64,000 bases of DNA from an uncultured Novosphingobium sp. (GCA_937864195.1 CALMJG010000020.1:945-64944); one strand, 5' to 3'. Shown: positions 24,211-62,608, counted from the stretch's first letter. The notes: generated by a model from the sequence alone, not told the origin. Numbers and translations: made by a program.

Positions 24211-24373
24211 TGTCGTCACCTTTAAAGATCATGTTCGCGGCCGCTTCGTTGTCTTCCTTCGCGCCCGGCCGGAAAGGCCAGAGCGCGAAGAGCAGGAAGA
24301 TCACGACCATCGCGGCCAGCCCCCAGCTGTCGGCAAAGTGCCGCAGCGCGTCGTAGGTCGAATGGACGCTCAC
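24200..24373 (-). CDS. ccoQ: cbb3-type cytochrome c oxidase subunit Q
   Basis: Not in the ORF track (57 aa); translated by hand as [61 protein letters not shown] start in a GTGA overlap with the ccoO stop. Overlaps the ccoP start by 11 nt. Confidence 0.75.
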
Positions 24374-25134
24374 CGGCCCTTTTCCTTGGCCAGCGCCTCC
24401 TGCGCGGCAGGCGCGTTGACGTCGACCATGGTGCCCAGCACCTGGAGATAGGCGACCAGGGCGTCCATCTCGGTCAGGCGGTCCGGGTTGCCGTCGAAGT
24501 CGCGGACCTGCGCCTTGGGATAGCGCTTGATCAGGTCGGCGGTGTCGGCATTCGGATCGGCCTGGGCCTTGAGGTCCTCGTTCGCCTTTTCGAGGTCTTC
24601 CTTCGTATAGGGCACGCCGACGCGGTAGAGCGCCAGCAGGTCGGCCTTCATGTCGCCGGCGTTCAGGTCATTCTTGGCCAGGAACGCATAGGGCGGCATG
24701 ACGGATTCAGGCACCACGGCGCGCGGATCCTTGAGGTGCTGGACGTGCCATTCGTCGGAATACTTCTTGCCGACGCGGGCCAGGTCCGGCCCGGTGCGCT
24801 TGGAGCCCCACTGGAACGGATGGTCGTACATCGATTCCGCCGCCAGGCTGTAGTGGCCATAGCGCTCGACCTCGTCGCGGAACGGACGGATCATCTGGCT
24901 GTGGCAGACATAGCAGCCTTCGCGGATGTAGATGTCCCGCCCGGCCTGCTCCAGCGGGGTGTAGGGCCGCACGCCGTCCACCTTCTCGATCGTGTTGTCG
25001 ATCCAGAACAGCGGCGCGATCTCGACGATGCCGCCCACGGTCACGGCAAGGAAAGCGAACACGCCCAGCAGGGCCACGTTCTTTTCCAGCTTCTTGTGCC
25101 GGCCCCAGGGTTCCTTCTTGGTAGTCTCGGTCAT
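24370..25134 (-). CDS. ccoO: cbb3-type cytochrome c oxidase subunit O (monohaem c)
   Basis: 254 aa. CYVCHS haem-binding motif and typical FixO sequence. Confidence 0.9.
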
Positions 25135-25147
25135 TTCGAATTACCCC

Positions 25148-26818: not shown

Positions 26819-26885
26819 GCAAGGAATGAAATGTTAAGCCTGAATTCGACCCTTGGCCCTTTCGGCGCGCCATTGCAATGCAACA

Positions 26886-26899
26886 TTGATTGGGATCAA
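26886..26899 (-). promoter_or_regulatory. Consensus FNR/FixK anaerobox upstream of ccoN
   Basis: TTGATTGGGATCAA is a perfect TTGAT-N4-ATCAA. The centre is about 74 bp upstream of the ccoN ATG. Confidence 0.75.
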
Positions 26900-26942
26900 A
26901 TTGCCGGGGTCGGTCAGGAAAATGGCGAAAAACAGCGATAAA

Positions 26943-26956
26943 TTGCGCGGGATCAA
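26943..26956 (+). promoter_or_regulatory. Second FNR/FixK-like box, positioned for ompW
   Basis: TTGCGCGGGATCAA has a perfect right half-site and a TTGCG left half. The centre is about 100 bp upstream of the ompW ATG. Confidence 0.5.
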
Positions 26957-27050
26957 TGTTTGCACCTGCGGCATCGGCGCATTGGACGATGAGCGTTGCA
27001 AGCAATAGCCAGGTCGCACGGGGCGGCCATTGCGGCGCGGATGAGGGAAT

Positions 27051-27725
27051 ATGAAAAAGCTGACGATCGCTGCGGCGCTGGCCGCTGCCACGATGCTCGC
27101 GAATCCGGCCTATGCCGGCAACGCGGAAGGCAAGTTCCAGGTCAAGGTCCTGGCCACCGGCGTGCTGCCGGACGGCAAGATCGACAAGATCAACATCAAC
27201 GCCGTCGGCCTGCCCGCGACCTCGCAGACCAAGGCGAACGACAATGTCGTCCCCACGCTCGCGGTTGAATATTTCGCCACGCCGAACGTGTCGATCGAGA
27301 CGATCTGCTGCTTCACCCAGCACCATGTGACCGGCACCGCCGGGATTGCCGGCGCTGACGTGGCCCAGCACGTCCTGATCCTGCCCGCCACCGTCACGCT
27401 GAAGTATCACCTCAACGCCGGACCCATCAAGCCGTACGTCGGCGTTGGCCCCAGCGTGTTCTTCTACTTCGACGAAAAGCCGGGTGCGACCGCCAAGGCC
27501 CTTGGCGCCACTTCGCTGAAGATGGACAACAAGCTGGGCGTCGCGCTTCAGGCCGGTGTCGACGTGCCGATCAACGATGGCGGCATGGGCATCTCGCTGG
27601 ATGCGAAGAAGTATTTCATGAAGACCACCACCCACTTCTACACCGCTGCGGGCGTCGAAGCGCTTTCGACCACCCACAAGCTTGATCCGTGGGTCATTTC
27701 GGGCGGTGTCTACGTCCGCTTCTGA
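27051..27725 (+). CDS. ompW: OmpW-family outer membrane protein
   Basis: 224 aa. Signal peptide ending AYA, alternating beta-strand pattern, C-terminal ...GGVYVRF. Confidence 0.85.
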   Translation: MKKLTIAAALAAATMLANPAYAGNAEGKFQVKVLATGVLPDGKIDKININAVGLPATSQTKANDNVVPTLAVEYFATPNVSIETICCFTQHHVTGTAGIAGADVAQHVLILPATVTLKYHLNAGPIKPYVGVGPSVFFYFDEKPGATAKALGATSLKMDNKLGVALQAGVDVPINDGGMGISLDAKKYFMKTTTHFYTAAGVEALSTTHKLDPWVISGGVYVRF

Positions 27726-27748
27726 TCCGGGTGAAGGCCGGGGCCGGT

Positions 27749-28447
27749 TCAACCTGCCTCGGCCGCCAGCCCTTCGCGGTCGAGGATCACCACCTCGCGC
27801 CGGGAAGGCAGGTCGATCAGGCCATCGGCCTTGAGCCGGGTGAACTGGCGGCTGACGGTTTCGATCGTCAGCCCCAGCACGTCCGCCACCTGCTGGCGCG
27901 AAAACGGCAGGGCAAAGTGGCGCAGCGGCATATCGGGTGCTTCGACGCAGCCGGGCTGGACCAGCCGCTCCGACATTTCGAGCAGGAAGCTCGACACCTT
28001 TTCCCCGGCCGACTTGCGGCCGAGCAGCAGCATCCAGCGGCGCGTCCGGTCCAGTTCGGCCAGAGTGCGCTGAAGCAGCTTGTGTTCAAGGCTGGGGTGT
28101 TCGCGGGCGAAGGCGTCAAAGTCCTTGCGGCTGAACACGCAGACCTTGGCTTCGGTAAGGGCGGTGACGCCGTGGCCGCTGGTCGCGCCAAACGGGCGGC
28201 CAATGAAATCCGAGGGATAGACCACGCCGACGATCTGCTCGCGCCCGTCCTCGGTTCCGGTGGAAAGCTTGAGCACGCCGTCGATGACATTGGCGACGAG
28301 GACCGAATCTTCCCCTTCCCACATCAGCGATTCGCCGGGCGCCAGCGTGCGGCGACGCCCGATATTGTTGAGCGTCTTCAGCTCTTCCCCGTCGAGGGAG
28401 GAACAGATCGCGCGGTTGCGCACGACGCAGGTATCGCAGGCGAGCAT
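27749..28447 (-). CDS. fnrL: Crp/Fnr-family oxygen-responsive regulator (FnrL-type)
   Basis: 232 aa. N-terminal Cys cluster C-x2-C-x7-C (MLACDTCVVRNRAICS) plus a central Cys (KVCVF). cNMP-like domain and C-terminal HTH (RQQVADVLGLTIETVSRQFTRL). Confidence 0.85.
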   Translation of the reverse strand: MLACDTCVVRNRAICSSLDGEELKTLNNIGRRRTLAPGESLMWEGEDSVLVANVIDGVLKLSTGTEDGREQIVGVVYPSDFIGRPFGATSGHGVTALTEAKVCVFSRKDFDAFAREHPSLEHKLLQRTLAELDRTRRWMLLLGRKSAGEKVSSFLLEMSERLVQPGCVEAPDMPLRHFALPFSRQQVADVLGLTIETVSRQFTRLKADGLIDLPSRREVVILDREGLAAEAG

Positions 28448-28506: not shown

Positions 28507-29250
28507 TCACGGCACTTCCGCGATCCCGGCCAGGGCGCTGCGCAGCCGGTCCAGCGCCTGGGCCTTGAGCTGGTGCACGCGCGGCACCGAAACGGCCAGG
28601 GTTTCCGCGATTTCGGAAAGATTTAGCTCTTCCACGAAGTAGAGCTGGACGATCAGTTGCAGTCGCTCCGGCAGGGCCGCGATGGCGGCGGCAACCTGGC
28701 CGCGCATTTCCTCGCTGGCCAGCAACTCCAGGCTGTCGGGGCGTTCGTCGGCGAAGGCCATGTCGCTATCGGAATAGGCCTCGTCGAGCGAGTCGAAGCG
28801 CAGCGCCGCGCTGCTGCTCTGCCAGCCGGCAAGCTCGCGGGCCGGGATGCCCAGCGCGGCGGCCAGCTCCGCCGGGCAGGCCTCGCGCCCCAGTTCCAGA
28901 CGCAGCGCGGCTTGCGCGTCGCGCAGCTGGCGGCGGCGTTCCACCCCCCCGCGCGACAGCGGCACCGCGCGGCGGATCAGATCGACCATCGCTCCGCGCA
29001 CACGCAGTTTGGCATAGGCGGCAAAGCCGTCTTCGCCGGGGCCGGCATGGCGCTGGGCGGCCTCGGTCAGGGCGACCATCCCGGCCTGCATCAGGTCTTC
29101 CAGCTCGATTCCGGGCCGCCCGCCGCCGTGGACGTGCCAGGCGAGGCGCCGGACCATGGGGACAAAGCGGCGGATGCGTTCCGCAGCATCGCTGCGATAG
29201 GCGCCGGCAACCTTGCGGGCATGGGTGAAACTGCGGTGATCCTGCTTCAT
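28507..29250 (-). CDS. fliA: Flagellar RNA polymerase sigma factor (sigma-28)
   Basis: 247 aa. Sigma-70 regions 2-4 of FliA type (…LMQAGMVALTEAAQR…, …LNLSEIAETLAVSVPRVHQLKAQAL…). ATGA overlap with the flhA stop. Confidence 0.85.
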   Translation of the reverse strand: MKQDHRSFTHARKVAGAYRSDAAERIRRFVPMVRRLAWHVHGGGRPGIELEDLMQAGMVALTEAAQRHAGPGEDGFAAYAKLRVRGAMVDLIRRAVPLSRGGVERRRQLRDAQAALRLELGREACPAELAAALGIPARELAGWQSSSAALRFDSLDEAYSDSDMAFADERPDSLELLASEEMRGQVAAAIAALPERLQLIVQLYFVEELNLSEIAETLAVSVPRVHQLKAQALDRLRSALAGIAEVP

Positions 29251-31346
29251 GCTGCAAGACTTTCAGGCTCGGGAAGGGAAGGAAGCGGCGGGGGCGCACC
29301 GATGACCGAGATCACCTCGATCGGCTGCGACACCGGCAGTTCGGCGATCGACAGGACCAGCACCGATGGCGCGCGCAGCTTCAGCAGCGCGGCGAGCGTT
29401 CGGCGCGCGCGCGGCTGGACCACCAGCGCCAGCGGCGGCGCATGGGCTCCGCGCTGGGCAACCAGGGCGGCGATATGCTCGCCGATCGAGCGGGCGAGTT
29501 CCGGCTCGACCACGGGCTGGCCGGTCGCGGGATCGGTCAGCCCCTGGACGATCGCGGCTTCCAGCTGCGCATCCAGCGTCAGCACCGGCAGGCGCTCGCC
29601 GGGGGCGCAGATGCGGCCCACCAGCAGGGCGCCCAGTTCCGCGCGCAGCATTTCGACCAGGCGCTCGTGATCCTGGGTCTGCTGGACCGCAAGGCTGAGC
29701 GCGGACAGGATCGGCAGCGGGTGGCCGATGGGAATCCCGTCCTCCAGCAAGGCGCGCAGCAGCCGGGTCAGCGCGGCGAGCGACAGCGGGTGCGGATAGA
29801 CCGTCTCGACCAGGCCCGAGGCGTGTTCCTTGACCGCGTCGAGGATCGCGCGGACCTCGTCCGGGCCAAGCAGGGCCTGCGGGCGTTCGCCCAGCAGCTG
29901 GTTGAGCTGGGTGGCGATCACCGTGCTGGCGTCCACGGTAAGGAAACCCTCGGCAATCGCGTGGTCGCGCTGCGCCGGATCGATCCACAGCGCCGGGCAG
30001 CCGAAGCTGGGATCGATCCCGGGATCGCCGGTCAGCTTGTGATCCTCGCGCACTTCGCCCGCGTCGATCGCCAGTATCCGGTCGGGGCGGATCATGCCCC
30101 CGCCCAGCGGCACGCCGCCCAGCAGGATGCGGTAGTCGTTGGGGGCGATATCGAAGGAATCGCGCACCCGGAACTGCGGCAGGACAAAGCCGAAGCCCTG
30201 GCTGAGCTGCTTGCGCACGCCGGTAACGCGCGCCACCAGCGGCGAGCCGCGCCGTTCATCCACCAGGTGGACCAGGCCATAGCCCAGCTCGATGGTGACA
30301 AGCGTGTGGTCCGACACGTCGGCCAGCACGACCCGGCCCGGATCGGCGGGTTCCTGCACCTCCTCCACCGTGACCGGCGGGCGCGCGGCGCGTTTGGACA
30401 GCGCGTGCCATAGCCAGAAGGCCAGCCCTGCGGCGGGCAGGAAGATGGTCTGCGGCATGGCCGGGATCACGCCGATCGCGGTCAGGATCACCGCCACCGG
30501 CAACCAGGTGCCGGGATTGGCGAGCTGGCCGCCGATCTGCCCGGCAAGGTCGCGGCTGTCGGACACGCGGGTGACGATCACCGCCGCCGCGATCGACAGC
30601 AGCAGCGATGGCACCTGCGCGACCAGCGCATCGCCCACGGCCAGGGTGATGTACTTTTCCGCCGCCTCGCCCGCCGACAGGCCGTGGCTGATCATGCCCA
30701 GGCAGAAGCCGGCGATGATGTTGACCCCCAGGATCAGCAGCGCGGCGATGGCATCGCCCTTCACGAACTTGCTGGCGCCGTCCATCGAGCCATAGAAATC
30801 GGCCTCGGTCGCCACTTCGCGGCGGCGCGCCTTGGCTTCGTCGGCGGTGAGCAGGCCTGCGGCAAGATCGGCGTCGATCGCCATCTGCTTGCCCGGCAAG
30901 GCGTCGAGCGTGAAGCGCGCCGAGACTTCCGACACGCGCCCCGCGCCCTTGGTGACCACCACCATGTTGATGATCATCAGGATCATGAACACGAACAGGC
31001 CGACCGCGAAATTGCCCCCCACCAGGAAGGCGCCGAACGCCTCGATCACGTGGCCCGCCGCCGCCCCGCCCTCGTGCCCGCTGACCAGCACGACGCGGGT
31101 CGAGGCGACGTTGAGCGCCAGGCGCAGCAGCGTGGCGAACAGCAGGACCGAAGGGAAGGCGCTGAAATCCAGCGGCTTTTCCGCGTTCATCGCCGCCATC
31201 AGGATCGCTACCGACAGCGCGATGTTGAGCACGAAGAACACGTCGAGCAGCAGCGCCGGGGTCGGCACGATCATCAGGCAGATGAGCGTCAGGATGCCGA
31301 AGGGCAGCGCGAGCGCGGCGGGCTTTACCCCGCTCAGCAGGGTCAC
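29247..31346 (-). CDS. flhA: Flagellar export apparatus protein FlhA
   Basis: 699 aa. Typical FlhA TM region and FHIPEP motifs (…VVTKGAGRVSEVSARFTLDALPGKQMAIDADL…). GTG start in a GTGA overlap with the upstream gene. Confidence 0.95.
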   Translation of the reverse strand: MTLLSGVKPAALALPFGILTLICLMIVPTPALLLDVFFVLNIALSVAILMAAMNAEKPLDFSAFPSVLLFATLLRLALNVASTRVVLVSGHEGGAAAGHVIEAFGAFLVGGNFAVGLFVFMILMIINMVVVTKGAGRVSEVSARFTLDALPGKQMAIDADLAAGLLTADEAKARRREVATEADFYGSMDGASKFVKGDAIAALLILGVNIIAGFCLGMISHGLSAGEAAEKYITLAVGDALVAQVPSLLLSIAAAVIVTRVSDSRDLAGQIGGQLANPGTWLPVAVILTAIGVIPAMPQTIFLPAAGLAFWLWHALSKRAARPPVTVEEVQEPADPGRVVLADVSDHTLVTIELGYGLVHLVDERRGSPLVARVTGVRKQLSQGFGFVLPQFRVRDSFDIAPNDYRILLGGVPLGGGMIRPDRILAIDAGEVREDHKLTGDPGIDPSFGCPALWIDPAQRDHAIAEGFLTVDASTVIATQLNQLLGERPQALLGPDEVRAILDAVKEHASGLVETVYPHPLSLAALTRLLRALLEDGIPIGHPLPILSALSLAVQQTQDHERLVEMLRAELGALLVGRICAPGERLPVLTLDAQLEAAIVQGLTDPATGQPVVEPELARSIGEHIAALVAQRGAHAPPLALVVQPRARRTLAALLKLRAPSVLVLSIAELPVSQPIEVISVIGAPPPLPSLPEPESLAA

Positions 31347-32200
31347 AGCCCGAACGCCCGCAGCTGCCCATAGGCCGCGCGGACGCGGTCAGGCATGGCA
31401 TCGCCCGCCCCGAAGGTCGCGGCGAGGGTTTCGGCCATCGACGGGCGCGGGGCTGGCGGCGCGGCAGCGGCTGGGGGGGAGGTGCTCCAGGCCGGCGGCG
31501 GGGTCCAGGCGGGGGCTTGCCAGCCGCCTGCCCCGGCCAGCGCGGGGGCCGGGGCGGCTCCGGTCGCCTCCATCGCGCCGGCCATCTTGCCGCGCATCAG
31601 GTCCATCACGGCGCCGACCGAACGCGGCGCGCCGCCCGGGCCATAGAAGATCGCCCGGTTGGCCGAAGCCGCGCGGGGCAGCAGCGCTGCGGCGCTTTGC
31701 GCGGGATCGGCGGCCAGCGCGGAGAGGAACCGCCCTGCCCCCTCGGCCCCCAGGAAATGGGCCATGTACAGCTCGGCCGCATCGGGTTCGCGCCCCAGCA
31801 CGCCTTTCAGCGCCGCGCCGTTATCGGCAGCCAGTTCGGCGGCCATCCGCGCGGAAAGTTCGGGATCGTGGCGCATCGCCAGCAACTGCTGGCGCAGCGC
31901 CGGATCGGCCACCCGGCCATCGTCGATCGCGGCCTCGGCCCAGGGCAGGCCATGCTCGGCGCCGTGGGCATCCAGGGTGGATAGCCAGGTGCCCTTGGTG
32001 AACTGGTACAGCCCCGCCGCGCTCGACGTGCCGGCGCGGGCCGAGGGGTTGAGGCCGGATTCGATCCGGGCCTGGGCCAGCAGATAGCCGAAATCGACTC
32101 CCGTGGCATTGGCGGCGCGGGAAATCGCGCCCCGCACATCAGGACGCGCGGCACCGGCGGCTGCGGCAGAGGGGACGACAATGGTTCCAGGCTGGCTCAA
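31343..32200 (-). CDS. Flagellum-associated lytic transglycosylase (SLT domain) with Pro/Ala-rich C-terminus
   Basis: 285 aa. SLT catalytic region FGYLLAQARIESGLNPSARAGTSSAAGLYQFTKGTW. The apparent start codon is TTG (32200), with GGGAG 9 nt upstream. First gene of the slt-flhA-fliA unit. Confidence 0.75.
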   Translation of the reverse strand: MSQPGTIVVPSAAAAGAARPDVRGAISRAANATGVDFGYLLAQARIESGLNPSARAGTSSAAGLYQFTKGTWLSTLDAHGAEHGLPWAEAAIDDGRVADPALRQQLLAMRHDPELSARMAAELAADNGAALKGVLGREPDAAELYMAHFLGAEGAGRFLSALAADPAQSAAALLPRAASANRAIFYGPGGAPRSVGAVMDLMRGKMAGAMEATGAAPAPALAGAGGWQAPAWTPPPAWSTSPPAAAAPPAPRPSMAETLAATFGAGDAMPDRVRAAYGQLRAFGL

Positions 32201-32238: not shown

Positions 32239-32254
32239 AGCAAGGGCCGTGCCA
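32239..32254 (-). promoter_or_regulatory. Sigma-54 (-24/-12) promoter for slt-flhA-fliA
   Basis: The minus strand reads TGGCACGGCCCTTGCT (GG-N10-GC with full TGGCAC-N5-TTGC consensus), about 40 bp upstream of the TTG start. Confidence 0.7.
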
Positions 32255-32963: not shown

Positions 32964-32990
32964 AGAACGGCAGGTGCCGCCCGCCTTTAA
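32964..32990 (-). promoter_or_regulatory. Sigma-28-type promoter for flgM-flgN
   Basis: The minus strand reads TTAA-aggcgggcggcacct-GCCGTTCT (TTAA-N15-GCCGTTCT; compare enteric TAAA-N15-GCCGATAA). The -10 element ends 30 nt before the ATG, and RBS AGGAG lies in between. Confidence 0.6.
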
Positions 32991-33014: not shown

Positions 33015-33518
33015 CTACGGCAGGTCAATGCCGACCAGGCCCGGACGCAGCACGCGCCCGCGCAGCACCTGCGCACCCTGGCCTGCTCCGCGCACCTTGA
33101 TCCAGGCGCCCTCGGCCCCGGATTCAAGTGCTTCGCCGCCCTGCGAGACGGTAAAGCCCTGGCCCGTCACCGCGATCGTCACCGCATCGCCGCGCGACAC
33201 CAGCGGGGCGGCGGCCGCGTCGCGCGCAGTGCCTGCCAGTGGCACGTAGATCCGCCAGCCGGGCGCGGAGGGGCAGCGTACCTCGACCATGTCCTGCCGG
33301 GAACCATACCAGCCGAGCGCCAGCGGCGCGGCGCAGGCCGCCAGCCGCAGCCGCCGATCTACCGGCTGGGCCGCGCCCCCGGTCCCTCCCGCCCCGACAC
33401 CGGCAAAGGCGGCGACCGCACGGTCGATCGCGGCCAGGTCGGCCAGCGGCTGGGCGGCTGCGGGTGCGGCTGCGGGTGCGGCGACCAGCGCCAGCGGACT
33501 AAGATAGCGAAACATCAT
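33015..33518 (-). CDS. flgA: Flagellar P-ring assembly chaperone FlgA
   Basis: 167 aa. Signal peptide and C-terminal SAF/FlgA motif (GDAVTIAVTGQGFTVSQGGEALESGAEGAWIKVRGAGQGAQVLRGRV). Confidence 0.8.
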   Translation of the reverse strand: MMFRYLSPLALVAAPAAAPAAAQPLADLAAIDRAVAAFAGVGAGGTGGAAQPVDRRLRLAACAAPLALGWYGSRQDMVEVRCPSAPGWRIYVPLAGTARDAAAAPLVSRGDAVTIAVTGQGFTVSQGGEALESGAEGAWIKVRGAGQGAQVLRGRVLRPGLVGIDLP

Positions 33519-33937
33519 GGTTGCGGCTCCTGCGGATTGCCGGACTGGTTCAGCAAGGGCCGTGCCAGCGCCGGGTCTTGATCAAAGGTCAGCGCGGCAT
33601 AGGGCTGGCCCGCCCGCTGCGGCTCGATCAGCACCCGCGCGGGGCGCCCCGCCCCCGCCGCGAGCGTCAGCGCGGCCTGCGCCGAAGGCTGGGGCGCAAT
33701 GATGGTCAGGCGCTGGCGCGGATCGCTGCCCTGCCCGTCCAGCCAGGCGCGCAGCGCGGCGGGATCGGTGCCGCGCCACACCGCCACCGGATCGCCCAGC
33801 GCGGGCAGTGCGGCTTTCAGCGGCGGCGCAGCTGGCGGCGCTGGCGCATCGCCCACCGCCGCAGCGCTGATCATGAACAGGACCATCGAAAGGTCGGCCA
33901 TCAGGGTCTGCCAGCCGCTGCCGATCCGCGCGTTCAC
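33515..33937 (-). CDS. MotB-N-terminal-like single-pass membrane protein lacking an OmpA-like domain
   Basis: 140 aa. GTG start in a GTGA overlap with the upstream MotA-like gene. GWQTLMADLSMVLFMISAAAV parallels the canonical MotB segment AWKVAYADFVTAMMAFF, including the Asp. The remainder is an Ala/Pro/Gln-rich region with no recognisable peptidoglycan-binding motif. Confidence 0.55.
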   Translation of the reverse strand: MNARIGSGWQTLMADLSMVLFMISAAAVGDAPAPPAAPPLKAALPALGDPVAVWRGTDPAALRAWLDGQGSDPRQRLTIIAPQPSAQAALTLAAGAGRPARVLIEPQRAGQPYAALTFDQDPALARPLLNQSGNPQEPQP

Positions 33938-34593
33938 GCGGCGGCCTGCACGGGCGCGCTTTCGCCGCGGCGCGGCATCGACGGGGCAAGCTGGGCCGCC
34001 AGCCAGTCGATCACCGCCTGCCGCTCGGCCTCCTCGGCCTGGGCAGCACGCTCGACGATCCGGGCCAGCGGCGCGAGGACCAGGTTGGAGAGCAGCAGGC
34101 CGTAGAGCGTCGTCACCACCGCCATGGCGATGGCCCCGGCCATCCCGGCGCGCATGGTCCCGTCCATCGGCATCTGGCTGAGCGAGATAAGCGTGCCGGC
34201 AAGGCCAAACACCGGCGCCAGTTCCGCAGCCTGCGCCAGCGTTCGCACCGCGCGCTCGCTTTGCGCCAGGCGGCGGGCGCGGTGCGCGGTGTGGCGCTCA
34301 AGCAGCGCCTCAAGCGAGCGAGCGCCGATCAGCGCATCGGTCACTTCGGCAAATTCGCGGTCGTCGAAATGGTGCGGCTGGACGCGCAGCAGGCCGTCCT
34401 GGCGGATCTCCTGCACCTGCAAGGCCAGTTCCGCGCGGGTCGCGGCGGCATCGAAGCGCCGCTGGCCGAGCTGCCAGAGCTTGGCGAGGGTCAGGCGGCA
34501 GTCCCCAAGGCCCGCACGCAGCAGCGTGGCCAGCGCGGTTCCGCCCAGCACGATAGCCGCCGAGGGCCCATCGATCAGGATCGCGAAGTTCAT
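33934..34593 (-). CDS. MotA/TolQ/ExbB-family proton-channel protein (3-TM type)
   Basis: Start trimmed to ATG 34593, with RBS GAAGGAGC upstream. 219 aa. PSAAIVLGGTALATLL aligns with TM2 of the canonical MotA in this window. The C-terminal helix pair is LAPVFGLAGTLISL / AIAMAVVTTLYGLLLSNLVLAPL. Confidence 0.7.
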   Translation of the reverse strand: MNFAILIDGPSAAIVLGGTALATLLRAGLGDCRLTLAKLWQLGQRRFDAAATRAELALQVQEIRQDGLLRVQPHHFDDREFAEVTDALIGARSLEALLERHTAHRARRLAQSERAVRTLAQAAELAPVFGLAGTLISLSQMPMDGTMRAGMAGAIAMAVVTTLYGLLLSNLVLAPLARIVERAAQAEEAERQAVIDWLAAQLAPSMPRRGESAPVQAAA

Positions 34594-34618
34594 GGGACGA
34601 AAGCTCCTTCGCCCCTCT

Positions 34619-34645
34619 CGAACGGCAGGGCGCGGCGGCAATTCA
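34619..34645 (-). promoter_or_regulatory. Sigma-28-like promoter for the MotA-like/MotB-like(-flgA) unit
   Basis: The minus strand reads TGAA-ttgccgccgcgccct-GCCGTTCG. Spacing is the same as in the flgM, fliC and fliD motifs, with one mismatch in each element. It ends 25 nt before the ATG. Confidence 0.45.
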
Positions 34646-34730
34646 CCCCTTGGCGCAACTTTGCCGGAACGCGGCAGGATCTTGCCGGCAGGCACGGCGC
34701 AAAGGCCCGGAAACGCCCGCTTTCGGCACT

Positions 34731-34746
34731 TGGCACGGCGCTTGCT
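34731..34746 (+). promoter_or_regulatory. Sigma-54 (-24/-12) promoter for the flgB operon
   Basis: TGGCACGGCGCTTGCT is a perfect TGGCAC-N5-TTGC, 34 nt upstream of the flgB ATG. It differs at one position from the slt promoter. Confidence 0.75.
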
Positions 34747-38957: not shown

Positions 38958-40115
38958 ATGATGTTGAATTCGATGCTGCAAGCCATCGCCCCCTTTCTCC
39001 CATCCCGCTTGCGGGAGGGGAGAAGGTTGGCAGCGGCGCTGTGCGCGCTGGCGGTCGCTCTGGCACCCGCAGTTGTCCATGCCGAACGCGTGCGCGATCT
39101 TGGCACGTTCCAGGGCGTGCGCACCAACCAGCTGACCGGCTACGGCCTGGTCGTCGGGCTGAATGGCACGGGCGATGACAGCCTTGAATACGTCACCCAG
39201 GCGATGCGCGGCGTTTCGGGCCGGGTCGGAGTGCAATTGCCGCCCGGCGTCAATCCTGCCCTCAAGAACGCCGCCGCCGTGATCGTCACGGCCGACCTGC
39301 CCGCCTTCGCCAAGCCGGGGCAGCGGATCGACGTGACCGTATCGGCGCTGGGCAAGGCCAAGTCCCTGCGCGGCGGGGCGCTGATCATGACCCCGCTCTA
39401 CGGCGCGGACGGGCAGATCTATGCGATGAGCCAGGGCAACCTGGCGGTCGGCGGCCTCGGCATTTCCGGCGCGGACGGATCGAAGCTGACGGTCAATATC
39501 CCGACCGTTGGCCGGATCGCGGACGGCGCCAGCGTGGAGCGCGCGGTCGCCACCGGGTTCGACAGCGCAGACCTGCTGCGCTGGAACCTGTTCCAGTCCG
39601 ATTTCCTGACCGCCACCCGCGTGCGCGACGCGATCAACCGGCGCTGGCCCGGCACCGCGAGTGTCGAGGACGGCGTTACCCTGGCCCTGCGCCTCCCCGC
39701 CGAGACCGATGCGCGCGCGGCGATGATCGCAGGGATCGAGATGCTGGACGTGACCCCGGCGGAAACCGCCGCTCGGGTGATCGTCAACAGCCGCACCGGC
39801 ACCGTGGTGATCAACAGCGCGGTGCGGCTCTATCCGGCGGCGATCAGCCACGGCAAGCTGACCGTGCGGGTCGATGAAAGCCCCAAGGTGGTCCAGCCCG
39901 GGCCGCTCAGCCGGGGCCAGACCCAGGTCCAGCAGGACAGCACCCTGTCCGCCGAGGAAGCCGGGGATTCGGTGGTCCACTTCAAGCCCGGCGCCTCGCT
40001 CGCCCGGCTGGTCGATGCGCTCAACCTGCTGGGCACCAGCCCGTCCGATCTGGTCGCGATCCTTGAGGCGCTGAAACAGGCCGGGGCACTGAAAGCGGAA
40101 ATGGTGGTGATATGA
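38958..40115 (+). CDS. flgI: Flagellar P-ring protein FlgI
   Basis: Start set at the first of three close in-frame ATGs (38958/38961/38973), after RBS GAGGAG. Signal peptide ending VVHA, followed by ERVRDLGTFQGVRTNQLTGYGLVVGLNGTGD. Confidence 0.9.
   Translation: MMLNSMLQAIAPFLPSRLREGRRLAAALCALAVALAPAVVHAERVRDLGTFQGVRTNQLTGYGLVVGLNGTGDDSLEYVTQAMRGVSGRVGVQLPPGVNPALKNAAAVIVTADLPAFAKPGQRIDVTVSALGKAKSLRGGALIMTPLYGADGQIYAMSQGNLAVGGLGISGADGSKLTVNIPTVGRIADGASVERAVATGFDSADLLRWNLFQSDFLTATRVRDAINRRWPGTASVEDGVTLALRLPAETDARAAMIAGIEMLDVTPAETAARVIVNSRTGTVVINSAVRLYPAAISHGKLTVRVDESPKVVQPGPLSRGQTQVQQDSTLSAEEAGDSVVHFKPGASLARLVDALNLLGTSPSDLVAILEALKQAGALKAEMVVI
38997..39022 (+). repeat. CCCTCCC/GGGAGGG-class hairpin inside the flgI 5' coding region
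   Basis: CTCCCATCCCGC-tt-GCGGGAGGGGAG, a 12-bp stem with one mismatch. Its position is equivalent to the flgH hairpin. Confidence 0.75.
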
Positions 40116-40417
40116 CGCTGTCCCTCACTCACGCCGCTACCGCGCCAGCCGCCCCGCCATCGCCCGAGCGCCAGAAGCTGGCGCAGGCCGCAAGGCAGTT
40201 CGAGGCGATCTTCGTGCGCCAGATGCTCAGCAGCGCGCGCAAGGCCGATTTCGGCGGCGATGTGCTGGGCGGCCAGGGCCTCGACACCTTCCGCACCATG
40301 CAGGACGAACGCTTTGCCGACATCGCCGCCGAAACCGGGGCGTTCGGCATGGCAAGGATGATCGAACTGCAACTTGCCACGCAAGTTGCCCCGCCGTCCC
40401 GTTCGGGCCGGGAGTGA
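40112..40417 (+). CDS. flgJ: Rod-binding protein (FlgJ N-terminal domain only, no muramidase domain)
   Basis: 101 aa. Rod-binding motif AARQFEAIFVRQMLSSARKADFGGD…DTFRTMQDERFADIAAETGAFGMARMI. ATGA overlap with the flgI stop. Confidence 0.8.
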   Translation: MTLSLTHAATAPAAPPSPERQKLAQAARQFEAIFVRQMLSSARKADFGGDVLGGQGLDTFRTMQDERFADIAAETGAFGMARMIELQLATQVAPPSRSGRE

Positions 40418-42749: not shown

Positions 42750-43613
42750 ATGTACGCCGTGATCGGCATCGTCATCCTGCTCGTCATGGTGTTCGGCGGC
42801 TTCGCGCTTACCGGAGGGGCGCTCGGCCCGGTGATGCACGCCATCCCGCACGAAATGCTGATCATCGGCGGCGCCGCTGTCGGCGCGCTGGTGACGGGCA
42901 ATTCGCTCCACGGGCTGAAGGCGCTGGGCGGCGCCCTGGGGAAGGTGTTCAAGGGCCCGCGCCACACCAGGCAGGACCACATCGACGTGATCGTGCTGAC
43001 CACCAAGCTGATGAAGTTGCTGCGCGCCGAAGGGCCGGTGGCGCTGGAAAGCCACGTTACCGACCCCGCCGCTTCCGCGATCTTCGCCGAATTCCCGCGC
43101 CTGCTGGCCAACAAGGAACTGATCGCGCTGATCAGCGACACGCTGACGCTGATCGTGGTTTCTTCCGGCACGCTGGAAGTCAACGCGGTGGAAGACGTGA
43201 TGGACAATGCGATGAAGACGCACTTCCATGAAATGCACGAACCGCAGCACAACCTGCAGAACCTGGCCGACGCCCTGCCCGCGCTGGGCATCGTCGCGGC
43301 GGTGCTGGGGGTGGTCAAGACCATGGGTTCGATCGACAAGCCTCCTTCGGTGCTGGGCGGGATGATCGGATCGGCGCTGGTCGGCACCTTCATGGGGGTG
43401 CTGCTGGCCTATGGCATCGTCGCGCCGATCGCAGGGCGGCTGAAGCAGGTGCTGGACGCGGACGAGCAGATCTTTCACGCGGTAAAGCAGGTGATCATCG
43501 CCTCGCTTCACGGCTGGCCCCAGCCGCTGGTGGTGGAAAGTGCGCGCTCTGGCCTGGGCCACGATTTCCGCCCCGGCCTGTCCGAACTGCTTGATAGCCT
43601 GCGGGGGCGCTAG
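42750..43613 (+). CDS. motA: Flagellar stator protein MotA (canonical, 4-TM)
   Basis: 287 aa. Two N-terminal TM helices, a cytoplasmic loop, and the C-terminal channel helices (…ALPALGIVAAVLGVV…GSALVGTFMGVLLAYGIVAPI…). Confidence 0.9.
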   Translation: MYAVIGIVILLVMVFGGFALTGGALGPVMHAIPHEMLIIGGAAVGALVTGNSLHGLKALGGALGKVFKGPRHTRQDHIDVIVLTTKLMKLLRAEGPVALESHVTDPAASAIFAEFPRLLANKELIALISDTLTLIVVSSGTLEVNAVEDVMDNAMKTHFHEMHEPQHNLQNLADALPALGIVAAVLGVVKTMGSIDKPPSVLGGMIGSALVGTFMGVLLAYGIVAPIAGRLKQVLDADEQIFHAVKQVIIASLHGWPQPLVVESARSGLGHDFRPGLSELLDSLRGR

Positions 43614-43616
43614 GCC

Positions 43617-44462
43617 ATGGCCGCCAAGCCGAAACCGGGCACCAAGGCCGAGCCGCCGCGCCCGATCATCGTCAAGAAGATCACCGTGGTCGAAGGCGGC
43701 CACCACGGCGGCGCGTGGAAGGTTGCCTATGCGGACTTCGTCACCGCGATGATGGCCTTCTTCCTGCTGCTGTGGCTGCTGGGGGCGACCAGCGAAAAGC
43801 AGCGCAAGGGCCTGGCCGACTATTTCACCCCCACCCTGGTCAAGCTGAAGCAGGAAAGCGCCGGTTCCAACGGGATGCTGGGCGGATCGTCGATCACCGA
43901 TGCCGACAATTACCCCAACCGCGCCGGGCAGACCGGCAACAAGGCGCTGACCATTCCGCTGGATACCACCGGCGGAGCGAAGGAAGGCGCGGAACGAGCG
44001 AGGCGCGTCCAGGCGATGCAGCAGCGGCTGGAAAAGAAGCTGGAGCAGAACCAGCGGATCGCGCGGCTGGCCCGGCAGGTGCGGATGGTCGACACCGCGC
44101 AGGGCATCCGCATCGATCTGGTCGACGATGCCGACTTCTCGATGTTCCAGCTTGGCACCACGGTGCTGACGGGTGACGCAGCCGAATTGCTGAAAGTGCT
44201 GAGTCAGGTCGTGAGCGGCGAACCGGGCGAGCTGACCATTCGCGGCCATACCGATGCCCTGCCGTGGAAGGGCGGGCTGGGCGCCAACAACTGGTCGCTG
44301 TCCGCCGGACGGGCCGAAGCGACACGCCAGGCCCTGCTGCGCGAAGGGATCGCCGAGGACCGCTTTCGCCGGATCGAGGGCGTGGCCGACCGCGAACCGC
44401 TAGTCCAGAACAACCCGCAAGACCCGCGCAACCGCCGCATCTCGATCCTGTTGCTGCGCTGA
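43617..44462 (+). CDS. motB: Flagellar stator protein MotB (canonical, OmpA-like C-terminus)
   Basis: 281 aa. GAWKVAYADFVTAMMAFFLLLWLL plug/TM with Asp. C-terminal OmpA-like region (…IRGHTDALPW…NWSLSAGRAEATRQAL…NRRISILLL). Confidence 0.9.
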   Translation: MAAKPKPGTKAEPPRPIIVKKITVVEGGHHGGAWKVAYADFVTAMMAFFLLLWLLGATSEKQRKGLADYFTPTLVKLKQESAGSNGMLGGSSITDADNYPNRAGQTGNKALTIPLDTTGGAKEGAERARRVQAMQQRLEKKLEQNQRIARLARQVRMVDTAQGIRIDLVDDADFSMFQLGTTVLTGDAAELLKVLSQVVSGEPGELTIRGHTDALPWKGGLGANNWSLSAGRAEATRQALLREGIAEDRFRRIEGVADREPLVQNNPQDPRNRRISILLLR

Positions 44463-45173: not shown

Positions 45174-45223
45174 AGCCGTGCCACTGTCCCCACCGATAAC
45201 ACCGGGAGGGAAATGCCGAACAC

Positions 45224-49034: not shown

Positions 49035-49061
49035 AGAGCGGCAGGAACGCGGGGAAATTAA
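49035..49061 (-). promoter_or_regulatory. Sigma-28-type promoter candidate for fliC
   Basis: The minus strand reads TTAA-tttccccgcgttcct-GCCGCTCT. Architecture and flanks (CCCTTAA…CCTGCCG) are the same as in the flgM promoter. The -10 element ends about 68 nt upstream of the ATG, giving a leader of roughly 60 nt. Confidence 0.45.
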
Positions 49062-49186
49062 GGGCAGCCCCAGTTTGCCCGCCCGCCCCCTGCGACGATC
49101 CGCAGGCCCCTGTTCCATAAGGATTTCCACGTGGCCTTAAATTACCGGAGCGTTTGACGTTCTGCGCGCATTACCCCTCCATCGAG

Positions 49187-50463
<1,277 letters not shown>

Positions 50464-50467
<4 letters not shown>

Positions 50468-50829: not shown

Positions 50830-52449
50830 ATGAGCGAACTGGTTCCCACCGCCGTGCCCGCAGGCAGCGGCGCCCCGCTGATGCCGCTGACGCCGGCCAA
50901 TGCGCTGGAGCGGCTGCGCGGCATTTCCCGGCAGCCCGCCGCGCGCAAGGCGCTGCCGTGGTTCCTGGGCCTCTCCGCGCTGGGCGGCCTGGCGCTGACC
51001 TGGGCGCTGCTTTCGCCCTCGCCGCAGCGCGTGCTCTATTCCGAACTGGGCGACAGCGAACGCGCCTCGGTCGTGACCAGTCTCGACAAGGCGGGGATCG
51101 CCTACGAGATCGACAACCAGACCGGCGCGCTTAGCGTGGCCGAGAGCGAATTTCACCGGGCGCGGATGCTGGTCGCCTCGGACGGGGCACTGGCCAGCCC
51201 CGATGCCCCCGCCTCGCTCGACAGTCTGCCGCTGGGCGCCAGCCGCACGCTGGAAGGCGAACGCCTGCGCGCCGCGCGCGAGCACGAGCTGACCCTGACC
51301 ATCGGAGAGATCGAAGGCGTTGAATCCGTCCGCGTCCATCTGGCGGAGGCCAGCAAATCGGTGTTCGTGCGCGAGGATTCGCCCCCCACCGCCTCGGTCA
51401 TGGTCCGCATGGCGCGCGGGCGGCAGCTGGCCGACAGCCAGGTCGCCGCGATCGTCAACCTGGTCGCCGGATCGGTGCCGGGAATGTCGCCCGATGCGGT
51501 GCGGGTCGCCGACCAGCATGGCCGCCTGCTCTCGCAAAAGGGCGGGCAGGACGCCGACCACCTGGAACTGCAGGGGCGGATGGAAGACAAGCTGCGCACC
51601 CAGCTTGACCAGTTGCTCACCCCGATGCTGGGCGCGGGCAATTTCACCAGCGAGATCCAGGTCGAACTGGACCAGAGCGAAGTGACCACCGCGCGCGAAA
51701 GCTACGACAAGGAAGGCGTGCTGCGCAGCGAAAGCCAGGCGGCCTCGCAAAGCGCAGGGACTGGCCCCGCCGTGGGCGTCCCCGGCGTGCTGGCCAATAC
51801 CCCGCCCCCCGCCACTACCGCGCAGGCCGGACCGCCGCAGGGCACGCCGGGCGCCGGAGCGCCGCTCCAGAACGGCGAATCCAGCGCGACCCGCACTTAC
51901 GAACTGGGCCGCGAGGTGGCCGTCGCCAACAGCAAGCCGGGCGCGGTCAAGCGCCTCTCGGTCGCCGTGGCGATCAGCCAGTCGGCCGTGAAGCAGAACG
52001 GCAAGCCCGCGGATATCGAGGCGATCAAGGCCCTGGTCAGCGCCGCTACCGGCGCCAATCCCCAGCGCGGCGATCAGGTGCAGGTGATGGTCCGCCCGTT
52101 CGAGCCGGCTGCGGACACGGCCTTGCCGTTCTACGAGGCGCCGTGGTTCGCCACCCTTGCCCGCTCGGTCGTGGCGCTGCTGGCGGTGCTGCTGGTCCTG
52201 CTGCTGGGCGTGCGCCCGCTGCTGAAGACACTGCGCAAAAATCCTCCGCCCGCGCCCGAAGCCAGCGCCGCAGAGGCCGCCGCGCCCGGAGAAGACGGTC
52301 CGGCAGGCGATCCCACCCCCGCCGCCACCGATGCCGATCTTCTGGGCCGCCAGGTCAGCCTGGCCCAGCGGATCGTCGAGGAAAAGCCTGATGACGCCCT
52401 GCTGGCCCTGCGCCGGATGCTGGCCCAGCCGCAGGAAGGAGCCGCCTGA
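50830..52449 (+). CDS. fliF: Flagellar MS-ring protein FliF
   Basis: 539 aa. Typical N-terminal TM, YscJ/FliF domain (LYSELGDSERASVVTSLDKAGIAYEID) and C-terminal TM. Confidence 0.9.
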   Translation: MSELVPTAVPAGSGAPLMPLTPANALERLRGISRQPAARKALPWFLGLSALGGLALTWALLSPSPQRVLYSELGDSERASVVTSLDKAGIAYEIDNQTGALSVAESEFHRARMLVASDGALASPDAPASLDSLPLGASRTLEGERLRAAREHELTLTIGEIEGVESVRVHLAEASKSVFVREDSPPTASVMVRMARGRQLADSQVAAIVNLVAGSVPGMSPDAVRVADQHGRLLSQKGGQDADHLELQGRMEDKLRTQLDQLLTPMLGAGNFTSEIQVELDQSEVTTARESYDKEGVLRSESQAASQSAGTGPAVGVPGVLANTPPPATTAQAGPPQGTPGAGAPLQNGESSATRTYELGREVAVANSKPGAVKRLSVAVAISQSAVKQNGKPADIEAIKALVSAATGANPQRGDQVQVMVRPFEPAADTALPFYEAPWFATLARSVVALLAVLLVLLLGVRPLLKTLRKNPPPAPEASAAEAAAPGEDGPAGDPTPAATDADLLGRQVSLAQRIVEEKPDDALLALRRMLAQPQEGAA

Positions 52450-53480
52450 TGACCGATGCCGCCACGCTTCCGCCGCCGCCCGCGCTGGACGATGCCGCCC
52501 GCGCGGCGGTGATGGTCATGCTGCTCGACGAGGCTCAGGCCGCGACGATCCTTGCCCGGCTCGAACCGCAGGAACTCCAGCTGCTGGGCGAGAAGATGTG
52601 CCTGCTGGGCGAGATCGGCCCGGACCTCATCACCGAGGCGATCGGCGGCTTCGTCAAGAGCGCGGAACGCCAGGGGATCGCCGAGGGCAACCGTCCGGCC
52701 CAGTTCCGCTCGCTGATCACCAGCGCGCTTGGCGAAGTGAAGGCCGACAGCCTGATGCAGCGCATCCTGCCGATGGGCGAAGAGCGCGGCCCGGCGATCG
52801 AGCTCGCCCGCTGGCTCACCCCGCAGGCGCTGATCCCGCTGGTCAGGGACGAACACCCCCAGGCGCTGGCCGTGCTGCTGGTCCAGCTGGAACCCGAAGT
52901 CGCCGCGCAGGTGCTCCATGCCCTGCCCGCCTCTGTCCAGCCGCAGGTGATGCACCGCGTCGCCACGCTCGGCCCGGTCCCGGCCGAGGCGATTGCCATG
53001 CTGGAGGAGCTGCTGGAACGGCGGATCGCCGCCAGCCACGGCCAGGCCACGCTTACCATGGGCGGGGCGCGCGGCGCGGCCGAGATCATCAACAACGCCG
53101 GCAAGGCCGCCGAAAAGCGGATCATGCCGGAGCTGACCCGGATCGACAAGACGCTGGCCCGCGAGATCGAGAACGAGATGTTCAAGTTCGAACACCTCTT
53201 CGCGCTCGATCCGCAGGCGATGGGCTCGCTGCTGCGCGAAGTCGAAAGCGACATGCTGATCAATGCCTTGAAGGGCATTGCCGATGTCCAGCGCGAGGTG
53301 TTCTTCCGCGCCATGTCAAGCCGCGCGGCGGAGGGCGTGAAGGACGAGATCGCCGCGCGCGGACGGCTCAAGCTGGCCGAAGTGATCGAGGCCCAGAAGG
53401 CCATCGTCGCCGCCGCGCGCCGCCTCGCCGCGGAAGGAGTGATCGCGTTCGGCGCGGGCGGGGACGACGAATATGTCTAG
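52449..53480 (+). CDS. fliG: Flagellar motor switch protein FliG
   Basis: 343 aa. …MFKFEHLFALDPQAMGSLLREV…LINALKGIADVQREVFFRAMSSRAAEGVKDEI…. Confidence 0.9.
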   Translation: MTDAATLPPPPALDDAARAAVMVMLLDEAQAATILARLEPQELQLLGEKMCLLGEIGPDLITEAIGGFVKSAERQGIAEGNRPAQFRSLITSALGEVKADSLMQRILPMGEERGPAIELARWLTPQALIPLVRDEHPQALAVLLVQLEPEVAAQVLHALPASVQPQVMHRVATLGPVPAEAIAMLEELLERRIAASHGQATLTMGGARGAAEIINNAGKAAEKRIMPELTRIDKTLAREIENEMFKFEHLFALDPQAMGSLLREVESDMLINALKGIADVQREVFFRAMSSRAAEGVKDEIAARGRLKLAEVIEAQKAIVAAARRLAAEGVIAFGAGGDDEYV

Positions 53481-62581: not shown

Positions 62582-62608
62582 TTAAGTCCGCACGCGCCGT
62601 GCCGTTCT
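62582..62608 (+). promoter_or_regulatory. Sigma-28-type promoter candidate for fliD
   Basis: TTAA-gtccgcacgcgccgt-GCCGTTCT. The -10 is identical to flgM and the spacing is the same. It ends only 7 nt before the fliD ATG. Confidence 0.45.

Follow-up and report, generated by a model that had tools for sequence, protein, structure and literature searches.

An uncharacterised, lineage-specific stator-type gene pair in a flagellar cluster of Novosphingobium

A stretch of 64,000 nucleotides from an uncultured Novosphingobium sp. (GCA_937864195.1 CALMJG010000020.1:945-64944), referred to here as the window, holds one complete flagellar cluster, and between flgB and flgA this cluster carries two coupled genes, designated A3 and B3, in addition to canonical motA and motB. 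The A3-B3 pair, still uncharacterised, is a branch of the stator / 5:2 motor family that is specific to one lineage and whose periplasmic domain is new. A3 aligns and folds with the flagellar stator subunits PomA and MotA and has no first transmembrane (TM) helix; B3 is a B-subunit candidate with a conserved Asp in a single TM helix and neither a recognisable plug nor an OmpA-like domain. A first-pass annotation of the window, made from the sequence alone, had pointed to a second, atypical stator-family pair at this place in the flagellar cluster, and both open reading frames (ORFs), their GTGA overlap and the family of the A subunit were recovered in the present analysis.

Identification of the gene pair

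The stop codon of A3 and the GTG start codon of B3 overlap in the sequence GTGA, and a four-nucleotide overlap was found at this junction in 60 of 65 loci. Both genes have coding-type composition (GC content at third codon positions 0.85 for each). The A3 ORF could be extended in frame to a GTG at 34695, adding 34 residues that are basic and not hydrophobic; this start was rejected. ATG 34593 is the true start of A3, because the homologues listed are almost all 215–224 aa long and because both the promoter motif of the gene and its conserved Shine-Dalgarno site, GAAGGAG, fall within the extension.

The closest database proteins are 99% identical to the window pair and carry the name Novosphingobium. 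The pair has no established name, as the first-pass annotation had supposed: in RefSeq A3 is called 'MotA/TolQ/ExbB proton channel family protein' and B3 'hypothetical protein', and no paper on the pair was found in the literature on the flagella of Sphingomonas, Novosphingobium, Erythrobacteraceae and Sphingopyxis. The PADLOC defence models gave no match to either protein.

Family and predicted fold of A3

A3 matched the MotA_ExbB family in Pfam (PF01618, E = 6.5e-12). The NCBIfam models ranked PomA first (58 bits), ahead of MotP (48), MotA (25–28) and TolQ (14), all of them under the equivalog cut-offs (341, 394, 304–340 and 221, respectively), and the best match, to PomA, covered model positions 26–224 of 254. 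A phmmer search of PDB sequences with A3 returned stator A subunits only, PomA and MotA, with no match to ExbB or TolQ; residues 4–201 of A3 were aligned almost without gaps to residues 27–225 of PomA (8brd/8bri, E = 4e-10). Because A3 begins at the end of the TM1-TM2 loop of PomA, TM1 is absent. Identity to the canonical MotA of the window was 23% across 130 aa (E = 8e-6).

The AlphaFold2 (AF2) model of A3 (predicted local distance difference test, pLDDT, 88.7) has three TM segments, at roughly residues 9–27, 118–139 and 148–172, where the 'square fold' of stators has four (TM1–TM4). Its helices span residues 9–27 (TM), 29–42, 49–66 and 79–91 (all cytoplasmic), 94–139 (continuous, including a TM segment) and 148–205 (TM and cytoplasmic helix). 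In Foldseek comparisons the model reached TM-scores of 0.70–0.79 with PomA and MotA (E = 1.5e-8 to 3e-4), against 0.39–0.53 with ExbB and TolQ (E = 6e-3 or worse). The top score of 0.79 was obtained with PomA 8brd, and the MotA neighbours came from Clostridium, Bacillus, Aquifex, Campylobacter and Paenibacillus. Helix 94–139, equivalent to TM3, is unbroken and not kinked in the model, and a continuous TM3 is a trait of flagellar stators (PMC12505986). The first-pass annotation had given A3 three TM helices in an ExbB/TolQ-like layout; the helix number was reproduced by the AF2 model and by the PomA alignment starting at residue 26/27, and the likeness goes no further, sequence and fold being of the PomA/MotA type. 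Judged from alignment and model, A3 is a PomA/MotA-type stator subunit that has lost TM1 and is ExbB/TolQ-like in helix count only.

Ion path and cytoplasmic face of A3

Residues were scored in 72 A3 sequences and 69 locus-derived B3 sequences by alignment to PomA, with residue roles taken from PMC10374538, where those of PomA P151, T158, T185 and T186 are described. Both prolines that mark the channel of stator A subunits, P127 and P175 (PomA P151 and P199), were present in 100% of the A3 sequences (72/72), as were T134 and T162 (PomA T158 and T186; 72/72 each) and the first two glycines of the PomA GxxGxxxG zipper (G130 and G133 of A3, 100%). T161 (PomA T185) was conserved in 67 of 72 (93%). 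This Thr triad is conserved in all sodium-driven stators, with Ala instead in proton-driven ones (PMC10374538). The equivalent of PomA A190 in A3 is Leu166, that is, the hydrophobic, proton-type state; with a triad of the sodium type and Leu166 of the proton type, the coupling ion of A3 may be either. At the positions of PomA T158 and T185 the window's canonical MotA carries Ala and Gly (proton type). The two A subunits of the cluster differ in this way in their ion-site signatures, MotA being of the proton type and A3 combining a Thr triad with Leu at the A190 position.

The torque interface of stators was taken to comprise four or more helices in the cytoplasm, bearing charged residues that correspond to PomA R88, E96 and D114 (MotA R90 and E98). 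The cytoplasmic bundle of A3 has three predicted helices. A basic residue stands at position 64 or 65 (PomA R88/K89) in 65 of 72 sequences, an acidic cluster is conserved (D78 in 100%, E80 in 94%, and positions 82 (D/E), 83 (E/D) and 86 (D/E) in about 90%), and three arginines, R70, R92 and R108, are invariant. The rotor-side surface is in part retained, and the cytoplasmic face of A3 is strongly constrained, yet by alignment and model it does not appear to be the canonical FliG interface.

Architecture and relationships of B3

In the AF2 model B3 is laid out as a cytoplasmic segment (residues 1–8), a TM helix (9–29), a Pro/Ala linker (30–49), a periplasmic domain (50–118) and a variable tail. 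In MotB and PomB, too, the gene next after that of the A subunit encodes one N-terminal TM helix whose conserved Asp lies close to the cytoplasmic side. The Asp-bearing helix described in the first-pass annotation recurs throughout the family: W9 and D15 were found in 69 of 69 relatives each, and Q10, L16, L20 and F21 are likewise invariant. One distant representative has Glu at the Asp15 position. The W9-x5-D15 spacing equals that of W26 and D32 in E. coli MotB, and in an HH alignment that was not significant GSGWQTLMADLS of B3 stood in register with HGSWKIAYADFM of MotB.

The assignment of B3 as a B subunit is architectural and positional, its basis being gene position, translational coupling and the Asp-bearing, N-in single helix, not sequence statistics. 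Sequence searches in general have difficulty in detecting B subunits, which were assigned on a like basis in the 2025 survey of MotAB diversity (PMC12505986). B3 gave no match in Pfam, NCBIfam or PADLOC, and searches of 28 diverse members for MotB_plug (PF13677), ExbD (PF02472) and OmpA (PF00691) returned none even at E up to 10, in agreement with the lack of a recognisable OmpA-like domain noted at first pass. Full-length and N-terminal B3 profiles retrieved nothing significant from PDB sequences, neither MotB nor PomB; local hidden Markov model comparisons with E. coli MotB, TolR and ExbD and with the window MotB gave no significant match; and hhalign probabilities were below 1% with E. coli MotB and window MotB and 2–10% with TolR and ExbD, the latter over 10–16 TM residues only and not significant. 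The relationship to MotB that had been proposed for B3 was thus not recovered by profile search against the MotB_plug, OmpA and ExbD/TolR families.

Residues 30–49 are a predicted coil, variable and Pro/Ala-rich, in which no amphipathic plug helix is seen. The remaining ~100 aa of B3 had been described as Ala/Pro/Gln-rich, and the module as one that cannot anchor to the cell wall in the normal way; the first description is incomplete and the second does not follow, since residues 50–118 form a conserved, compact, structured domain in the AlphaFold model, with the order beta-alpha-beta-alpha-beta-beta and a pLDDT of 91–95. P50, W65, D72, R74, T78, R101 and D119, in or near this domain, are invariant or nearly so. 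A Foldseek search of the PDB with the B3 model gave nothing significant (best E = 0.03); the neighbours at noise level were Rid/YjgF, cyanuric-acid-hydrolase and OmpA-like domains (SiiA, the C-terminal part of Helicobacter pylori MotB, Pal), the OmpA-like matches having E-values of 0.03–0.15 for a domain of only ~70 aa. On conservation and model, the periplasmic domain of B3 is small, new and well conserved, and no relative of it is known.

A search of 1.8 billion proteins gave 338 representatives of the B3 family at 50% identity, and 177 clusters were obtained at 90% identity. Nearly all members are 110–185 aa long, the exceptions being fragments and a few artefactual longer calls, and conservation spans the whole length. 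Three overlong representatives (P0321, P0325 and P0339) were considered as Rosetta-stone fusions and rejected, as they look like frameshifts or chimeric calls.

Gene order and distribution

Eighty genome loci were fetched with the B3 profile and their gene order was read wherever the contig extends. The order flgC<flgB<>A3>B3>flgA>flgM>flgN>slt>flhA was found in all 80. Most of the loci are from Novosphingobium, with others from Caenibius and Croceibacterium, one metagenome-assembled genome (MAG) labelled Acetobacteraceae and one Sphingomonas palustris. Outside this set, in records that include Erythrobacteraceae, the same flgC-to-flhA order with A3-B3 was found in L082, L083 and L089, distant members of the family from Alteripontixanthobacter maritimus and one metagenome contig being among these. 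L089 is the 270-kb plasmid plas1 of Qipengyuania citrea (NZ_CP098495.1), in which the canonical motAB follow flgL. Further named B3 members occur in Croceicoccus and Croceibacterium, all annotated 'hypothetical protein'. In a plasmid collection the A3 query matched one Qipengyuania plasmid and the B3 query matched nothing. In the complete loci the pair was free of frameshifts, except in L080, where both genes aligned as split pieces.

The flagellar cluster of Sphingomonas paeninsulae (L090, NZ_CP032828.1) is related, its FlgB being 64% identical to that of the window, and on this chromid flgA lies ~310–370 nt from flgB with neither A3 nor B3 present. Because this related cluster lacks the pair, A3-B3 is a lineage-specific accessory of this flagellar system and not a core part.

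In Q. citrea much or all of the flagellar cluster is on the 270-kb plasmid together with A3-B3 (18 kb around the match were inspected), and in S. paeninsulae the cluster, devoid of A3-B3, is on a secondary replicon of 850 kb; the system as a whole may be mobile between replicons or genomes. A contig of one uncultured Novosphingobium MAG has a canonical motB homologue (75% identity; L027 5581-6378, minus strand) directly after flgC, in place of flgD-L, which reflects either a rearranged cluster or an assembly artefact.

Promoters and operon structure

Reference elements for sigma-28 (FliA) were TAAA-N15-GCCGATAA-like, with fixed spacing, upstream of late flagellar genes. An element of this kind, TGAA-N15-GCCGTTCG, lies upstream of A3 where the first-pass annotation had placed it. 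The consensus of 71 aligned A3 upstream regions was CTGAA-N15/16-GC-CGT(T/C)CT, ending 24–31 nt before the ATG and followed by GA-AGGAG, and a relaxed sigma-28-type pattern was present in 63 of the 71 loci, against 0.15 in shuffles. In the window an exact TTAA-N15-GCCGTTCT precedes flgM and fliD; the same motif had been reported before fliC, where the sequence is TTAA-N15-GCCGCTCT. The composite sigma-28-type motif occurred three times in the window, against 0.08 expected, and none was found before canonical motA. Dependence of A3-B3 on FliA is suggested by these motifs.

Sites for sigma-54 were scored as exact matches to TGGCAC-N5-TTGC. None was found before A3 (0/79 loci). Sites before flgB and before slt-flhA-fliA are exact in most related loci, and a further exact site, TGGCACGGCCCTTGC, lies in the 3' end of B3 ahead of flgA (Table 1), where the count refers to exact matches within the last ~110 nt of B3. 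The pair had been placed at the head of the flgA-flgM-flgN strand. It probably is not simply the first part of the flgA operon, as flgA has its own sigma-54-type promoter in 38 of 65 loci, the window among them, and the simplest reading of the promoter motifs is that A3-B3 form a late, FliA-type unit ahead of a middle-class, sigma-54-driven flgA. Read-through coupling of A3-B3 to flgA could still occur because the B3 stop codon can overlap the flgA start codon by four nucleotides in 50 of 63 loci (ATGA in the window). The semi-conserved tail motif LA(R/Q)xL of B3 ('LARPL', residues ~124–129) coincides with the flgA sigma-54 promoter (CTG GCA CGG CCC TTG CTG) and is missing from short-tailed B3 variants; this motif may be conserved for the sake of the DNA signal and not of the protein.

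Between flgB and A3 a palindrome, CGGCAA-N4-CTGCCG (family consensus TTGCCG), and a half-site, CGGCAAA, are conserved in ~70 loci. These CGGCAA-N4-TTGCCG repeats were considered as a sigma-54 promoter of A3 and rejected, the GG-GC spacing being one base short. They are probably binding sites of the sigma-54 activator encoded at 49154..50467, serving the flgB promoter. Because the sigma-54-type promoters before flgB, flgA and slt-flhA-fliA are conserved in related loci, the cluster seems to run on a hierarchy of sigma-54 and sigma-28. Such a hierarchy operates in Pseudomonas and Vibrio. The window cluster does not seem to follow the CtrA scheme reported for several alphaproteobacteria (PMC6180460).

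Proposed function

The pair is read here, at slightly less than even confidence, as an accessory, non-canonical 5:2 ion-driven stator-family unit that acts on the finished flagellar motor. This reading starts from the folds, the conserved residues, the gene order, the translational coupling and the promoter motifs of the pair. A3-B3 would be an A5B2 rotary unit whose ancestors were flagellar stators of the PomA/MotP type and which was later reduced: the A subunit would have lost TM1 together with most of its periplasmic interface (PI) helix, and the B subunit the plug helix and the OmpA-type domain. The ion path would have been retained in the Asp of B3 and in the two prolines, the glycines and Thr134, Thr161 and Thr162 of A3. 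As ions passed by the B3 Asp, the A3 pentamer would turn around the B3 dimer, which would be held by the Pro/Ala spacer and by the new compact periplasmic domain, the latter binding peptidoglycan or a basal-body component. In PomAB the plug docks on the PI helix (PMC10374538); loss of the plug from B3 therefore fits the loss of TM1 and the PI helix from A3, and with neither plug nor plug docking site the gating of the unit would have to differ from that of MotB/PomB. The unit would belong to the flagellum of Novosphingobium and Erythrobacteraceae, would be made late from its sigma-28-type promoter, like flagellin, FliD and FlgM, and would add to or modulate the canonical MotAB. The 5:2 assembly, the ion flow, the anchoring and the rotor-side partner are what we infer beyond the data on the pair.

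Several results weigh against this proposal. On the rotor side, the equivalent of PomA R88 is Arg in only 51% of A3 sequences, that of E96 is Glu in ~10% and that of D114 acidic in ~12%, so that, of the three charges without which PomA does not support motility, two (E96 and D114) are by alignment unconserved in A3; in the model a conserved Pro-containing loop replaces helix H2 of PomA. On the periplasmic side, B3 shows no significant similarity to MotB, PomB, ExbD or TolR in the profile and HH comparisons, and no OmpA-like anchor or plug was found in it (Pfam on 28 members, AF2 model). The tight translational coupling to flgA (50/63 loci) could point to a role in periplasmic assembly, and the S. 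paeninsulae cluster is without A3 and B3.

In a different, unlikely explanation A3B3 works like a Ton/Tol energiser and powers a periplasmic step of flagellar envelope assembly without touching the rotor; such a step might be the forming of the P ring together with FlgA, or the passage of the rod with the help of the SLT enzyme. The layout of the pair, a three-TM A subunit with a plug-free B subunit and a compact periplasmic domain, is that of ExbBD and TolQR, the B3 stop overlaps the flgA start as noted, and the exact FliG-contact residues E96 and D114 are unconserved. Against these stand the fold and sequence of A3, which are clearly nearer to stators than to ExbB/TolQ, and the strong conservation of its cytoplasmic domain. 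No TonB- or TolA-like partner is present. FlgA was considered as an anchored partner of this kind filling the vacant TM1 site and was rejected, since FlgA N-termini are ordinary cleavable Sec-type signal peptides (AxA type) with no membrane anchor. The timing also fits early assembly poorly, flgA often having its own sigma-54 promoter and A3B3 a late, sigma-28-type one.

A full alternative stator is less probable still. A3B3 would then drive the rotor through FliG by itself, possibly coupled to Na+, as MotPS or PomAB do beside MotAB in other bacteria. PomA and MotP are the best family matches of A3, the Thr triad is present (T134 and T162 in 100%, T161 in 93%), the canonical MotA of the window has proton-type residues at the triad positions, and a sigma-28-type promoter motif precedes the pair; the stator genes of enterobacteria belong to the sigma-28 regulon. 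The pair, however, has no OmpA-like anchor, plug or TM1, its torque interface has diverged, Leu166 at the PomA A190 position is of the proton type, and canonical motAB are kept in every cluster extending far enough (the window and the Q. citrea plasmid).

That the pair is what is left of an earlier second stator, decaying and now functionless, is very improbable: compared with canonical stators both proteins are shortened, and the related Sphingomonas cluster lacks them, but full-length conservation across several Sphingomonadales genera extends to the channel residues, the B3 domain, the coupling and the promoter, and L080 with its split pieces is the only departure from intact frames among complete loci. 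An unrelated ExbBD/TolQR-type or anti-phage (Zorya-type) module lying beside flagellar genes by chance, as the generic database name 'MotA/TolQ/ExbB proton channel family protein' might suggest, is hardly credible given the position between flgB and flgA in every locus found, the absence of a PADLOC match, the TolQ score of 14 bits against a cut-off of 221 and the lack of TonB-, TolA- or ZorC/D-like neighbours.

Beyond the accessory stator-family unit preferred here, we consider it conceivable, though doubtful, that A3B3 represents a previously unrecognised class of flagellum-associated 5:2 motor with a role other than classical peptidoglycan-anchored torque. The defining parts of such a class, put forward with the same reserve, would be descent from stators, three TM helices, no plug, a new periplasmic anchoring domain and the sodium-type Thr triad. 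Its members may dock to a basal-body ring and there adjust or slow rotation, or may use ion flow to drive some flagellar process in the periplasm.

Stator units, ExbBD, TolQR, GldLM and ZorAB are now viewed as one family of 5:2 rotary motors, and the question on which this pair bears is how such motors are re-purposed. A3-B3 is a natural intermediate, its A subunit being of flagellar-stator descent by the reading given above and reduced to the three-helix, plug-free Ton/Tol layout, while the pair keeps its ties to a flagellar cluster and to a late flagellar promoter. The pair offers a small test case for the need for TM1, plug and OmpA domain, for other ways of anchoring a B subunit, and for the use of 5:2 units of a second kind by a flagellum. 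It is of interest for work on the flagellar motor and on the evolution of 5:2 motors.

Features of the window

The flagellar cluster of the window contains flgA-L, motAB, fliC, fliD, fliE-I with FliG encoded at 52449..53480, fliL, fliP, fliQ, flhA, flhB, a FliA-like sigma factor gene and a sigma-54 activator gene; positions of the pair, its control elements and selected neighbours are given in Table 1. The small protein at the FlgJ position and the separate lytic transglycosylase resemble the split of functions between FlgJ and SltF in Cereibacter sphaeroides. Between motB and fliC (44478-47998) the cluster is broken by three non-flagellar genes, which encode an FGGY sugar kinase, a DJ-1/PfpI protein and a GST-like protein. 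The stretch 19259-28447, directly beside fliA, contains genes for a Crp/FNR-type regulator (27749..28447) and OmpW and a cbb3 oxidase cluster with maturation genes (ccoN/O/P-like, FixG, FixH and a P-type ATPase).

Table 1. Positions in the window of A3-B3, associated control elements and neighbouring genes
Feature	Position	Strand	Basis or remark
A3, 219-aa stator-type A subunit without TM1 (MotA_ExbB family)	33934..34593	-	PF01618, PomA alignment, AF2 model
B3, 140-aa B-subunit candidate, GTG start	33515..33937	-	ORF, sequence, AF2 model, conservation
Asp15 codon of B3, putative ion-carrying Asp	33893..33895	-	D15 in 69/69
B3 predicted periplasmic domain, residues 50–118	33584..33790	-	AF2 model, conservation
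Sigma-28-type promoter-like motif TGAA-N15-GCCGTTCG	34619..34645	-	Ends 25 nt before A3 start codon
GAAGGAG Shine-Dalgarno site of A3	34604..34610	-	
Divergent control region shared with flgB	34660..34745		Palindrome and half-site at ~34660..34687; flgB sigma-54 promoter
Sigma-54-type promoter before flgB	34731..34745	+	Exact in 77/79 related loci
Sigma-54-type promoter TGGCACGGCCCTTGC in B3 3' end	33553..33567	-	Exact; 34 nt before flgA start; 38/65 loci
Sigma-54-type promoter before slt-flhA-fliA	32240..32254	-	Exact in 68/70 related loci
Sigma-28-type motif before flgM	32965..32990		
Sigma-28-type motif before fliC	49036..49061		
Sigma-28-type motif before fliD	62582..62607		
flgA, P-ring chaperone, 167 aa	33015..33518	-	PF13144 ChapFlgA, E = 5e-11
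SLT-domain lytic transglycosylase between flgN and flhA	31343..32200	-	
FliA-like sigma factor gene	28507..29250		
101-aa protein at FlgJ position	40112..40417	+	'Rod-binding protein' at equivalent position in L083, L089, L090
Canonical stator, motA (287 aa, E. coli-type) and motB (281 aa, OmpA-like C-terminus)	42750..44462	+	Directly after flgL
Canonical motA	42750..43613	+	Window sequence
Sigma-54 activator gene	49154..50467		

Comparison with known motors

ExbB-ExbD and TolQ-TolR, the motors of the Ton system and of Tol-Pal, belong to the 'GIT' clade. The flagellar stators PomAB, MotPS and MotAB form the 'FIT' clade (PMC12505986). With the flagellar stators the pair shares the fold of A3 (TM-score up to 0.79, with PomA 8brd), a TM2-TM4 region collinear with PomA 27–225, the equivalents of P151 and P199, the first two zipper glycines and the Thr158/185/186 triad, a single Asp-bearing TM helix in B3 with the W-x5-D spacing of MotB, and adjacent, translationally coupled genes in a flagellar cluster. 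It differs from them in that A3 has no TM1 and hence no four-helix 'square fold', has three cytoplasmic helices with a Pro loop for H2 and unconserved E96 and D114 equivalents, and scores far under the NCBIfam equivalog cut-offs, and in that B3 has no plug or OmpA-like domain and only ~8 cytoplasmic residues.

ExbBD and TolQR are like the pair in the three TM helices of the A subunit, with the N-terminus outside, in a plug-free B subunit with a small compact periplasmic domain, and in having the gene of a periplasmic protein next downstream. They are unlike it in that A3 is nearer to stators (TM-score 0.39–0.53 with ExbB/TolQ) and its TM3 continuous rather than kinked, in that the B3 domain has no PF02472 match and an HH probability of at most 10%, and in that no TonB/TolA-type anchored partner lies beside A3-B3, which stands in a flagellar context. 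By the criteria of PMC12505986, A3 has flagellar-clade traits (stator fold, continuous TM3) without the square fold and, as modelled, without the 4–5-helix torque interface, and B3 has non-flagellar-clade traits (no plug, compact non-OmpA domain). The 205 genomes of that survey include one from Sphingomonadales, Sphingomonas alpina, and a pair like A3-B3 is not mentioned there (PMC12505986).

Stator B subunits are in some lineages held or activated by lineage-specific periplasmic proteins and not by peptidoglycan alone (PMC10954123). The periplasmic holding proposed for the B3 domain would be comparable with that by the MotX/MotY T-ring of Vibrio and by MotC, MotE and MotK of Sinorhizobium and the Cereibacter Fla2 system; those are separate soluble proteins acting on a normal, OmpA-bearing MotB or PomB, whereas in A3-B3 it is the B subunit that is new. 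The SiiAB proteins of Salmonella pathogenicity island 4 (SPI-4) are likewise a diverged MotAB-like pair serving as an accessory energiser of a larger envelope machine, and the peptidoglycan-binding domain of SiiA is among the weak structural neighbours of B3 (E = 0.03); the OmpA-like domain of SiiA is recognisable, though, its locus encodes an adhesin and a type I secretion system, and SiiA has no sequence relationship to B3.

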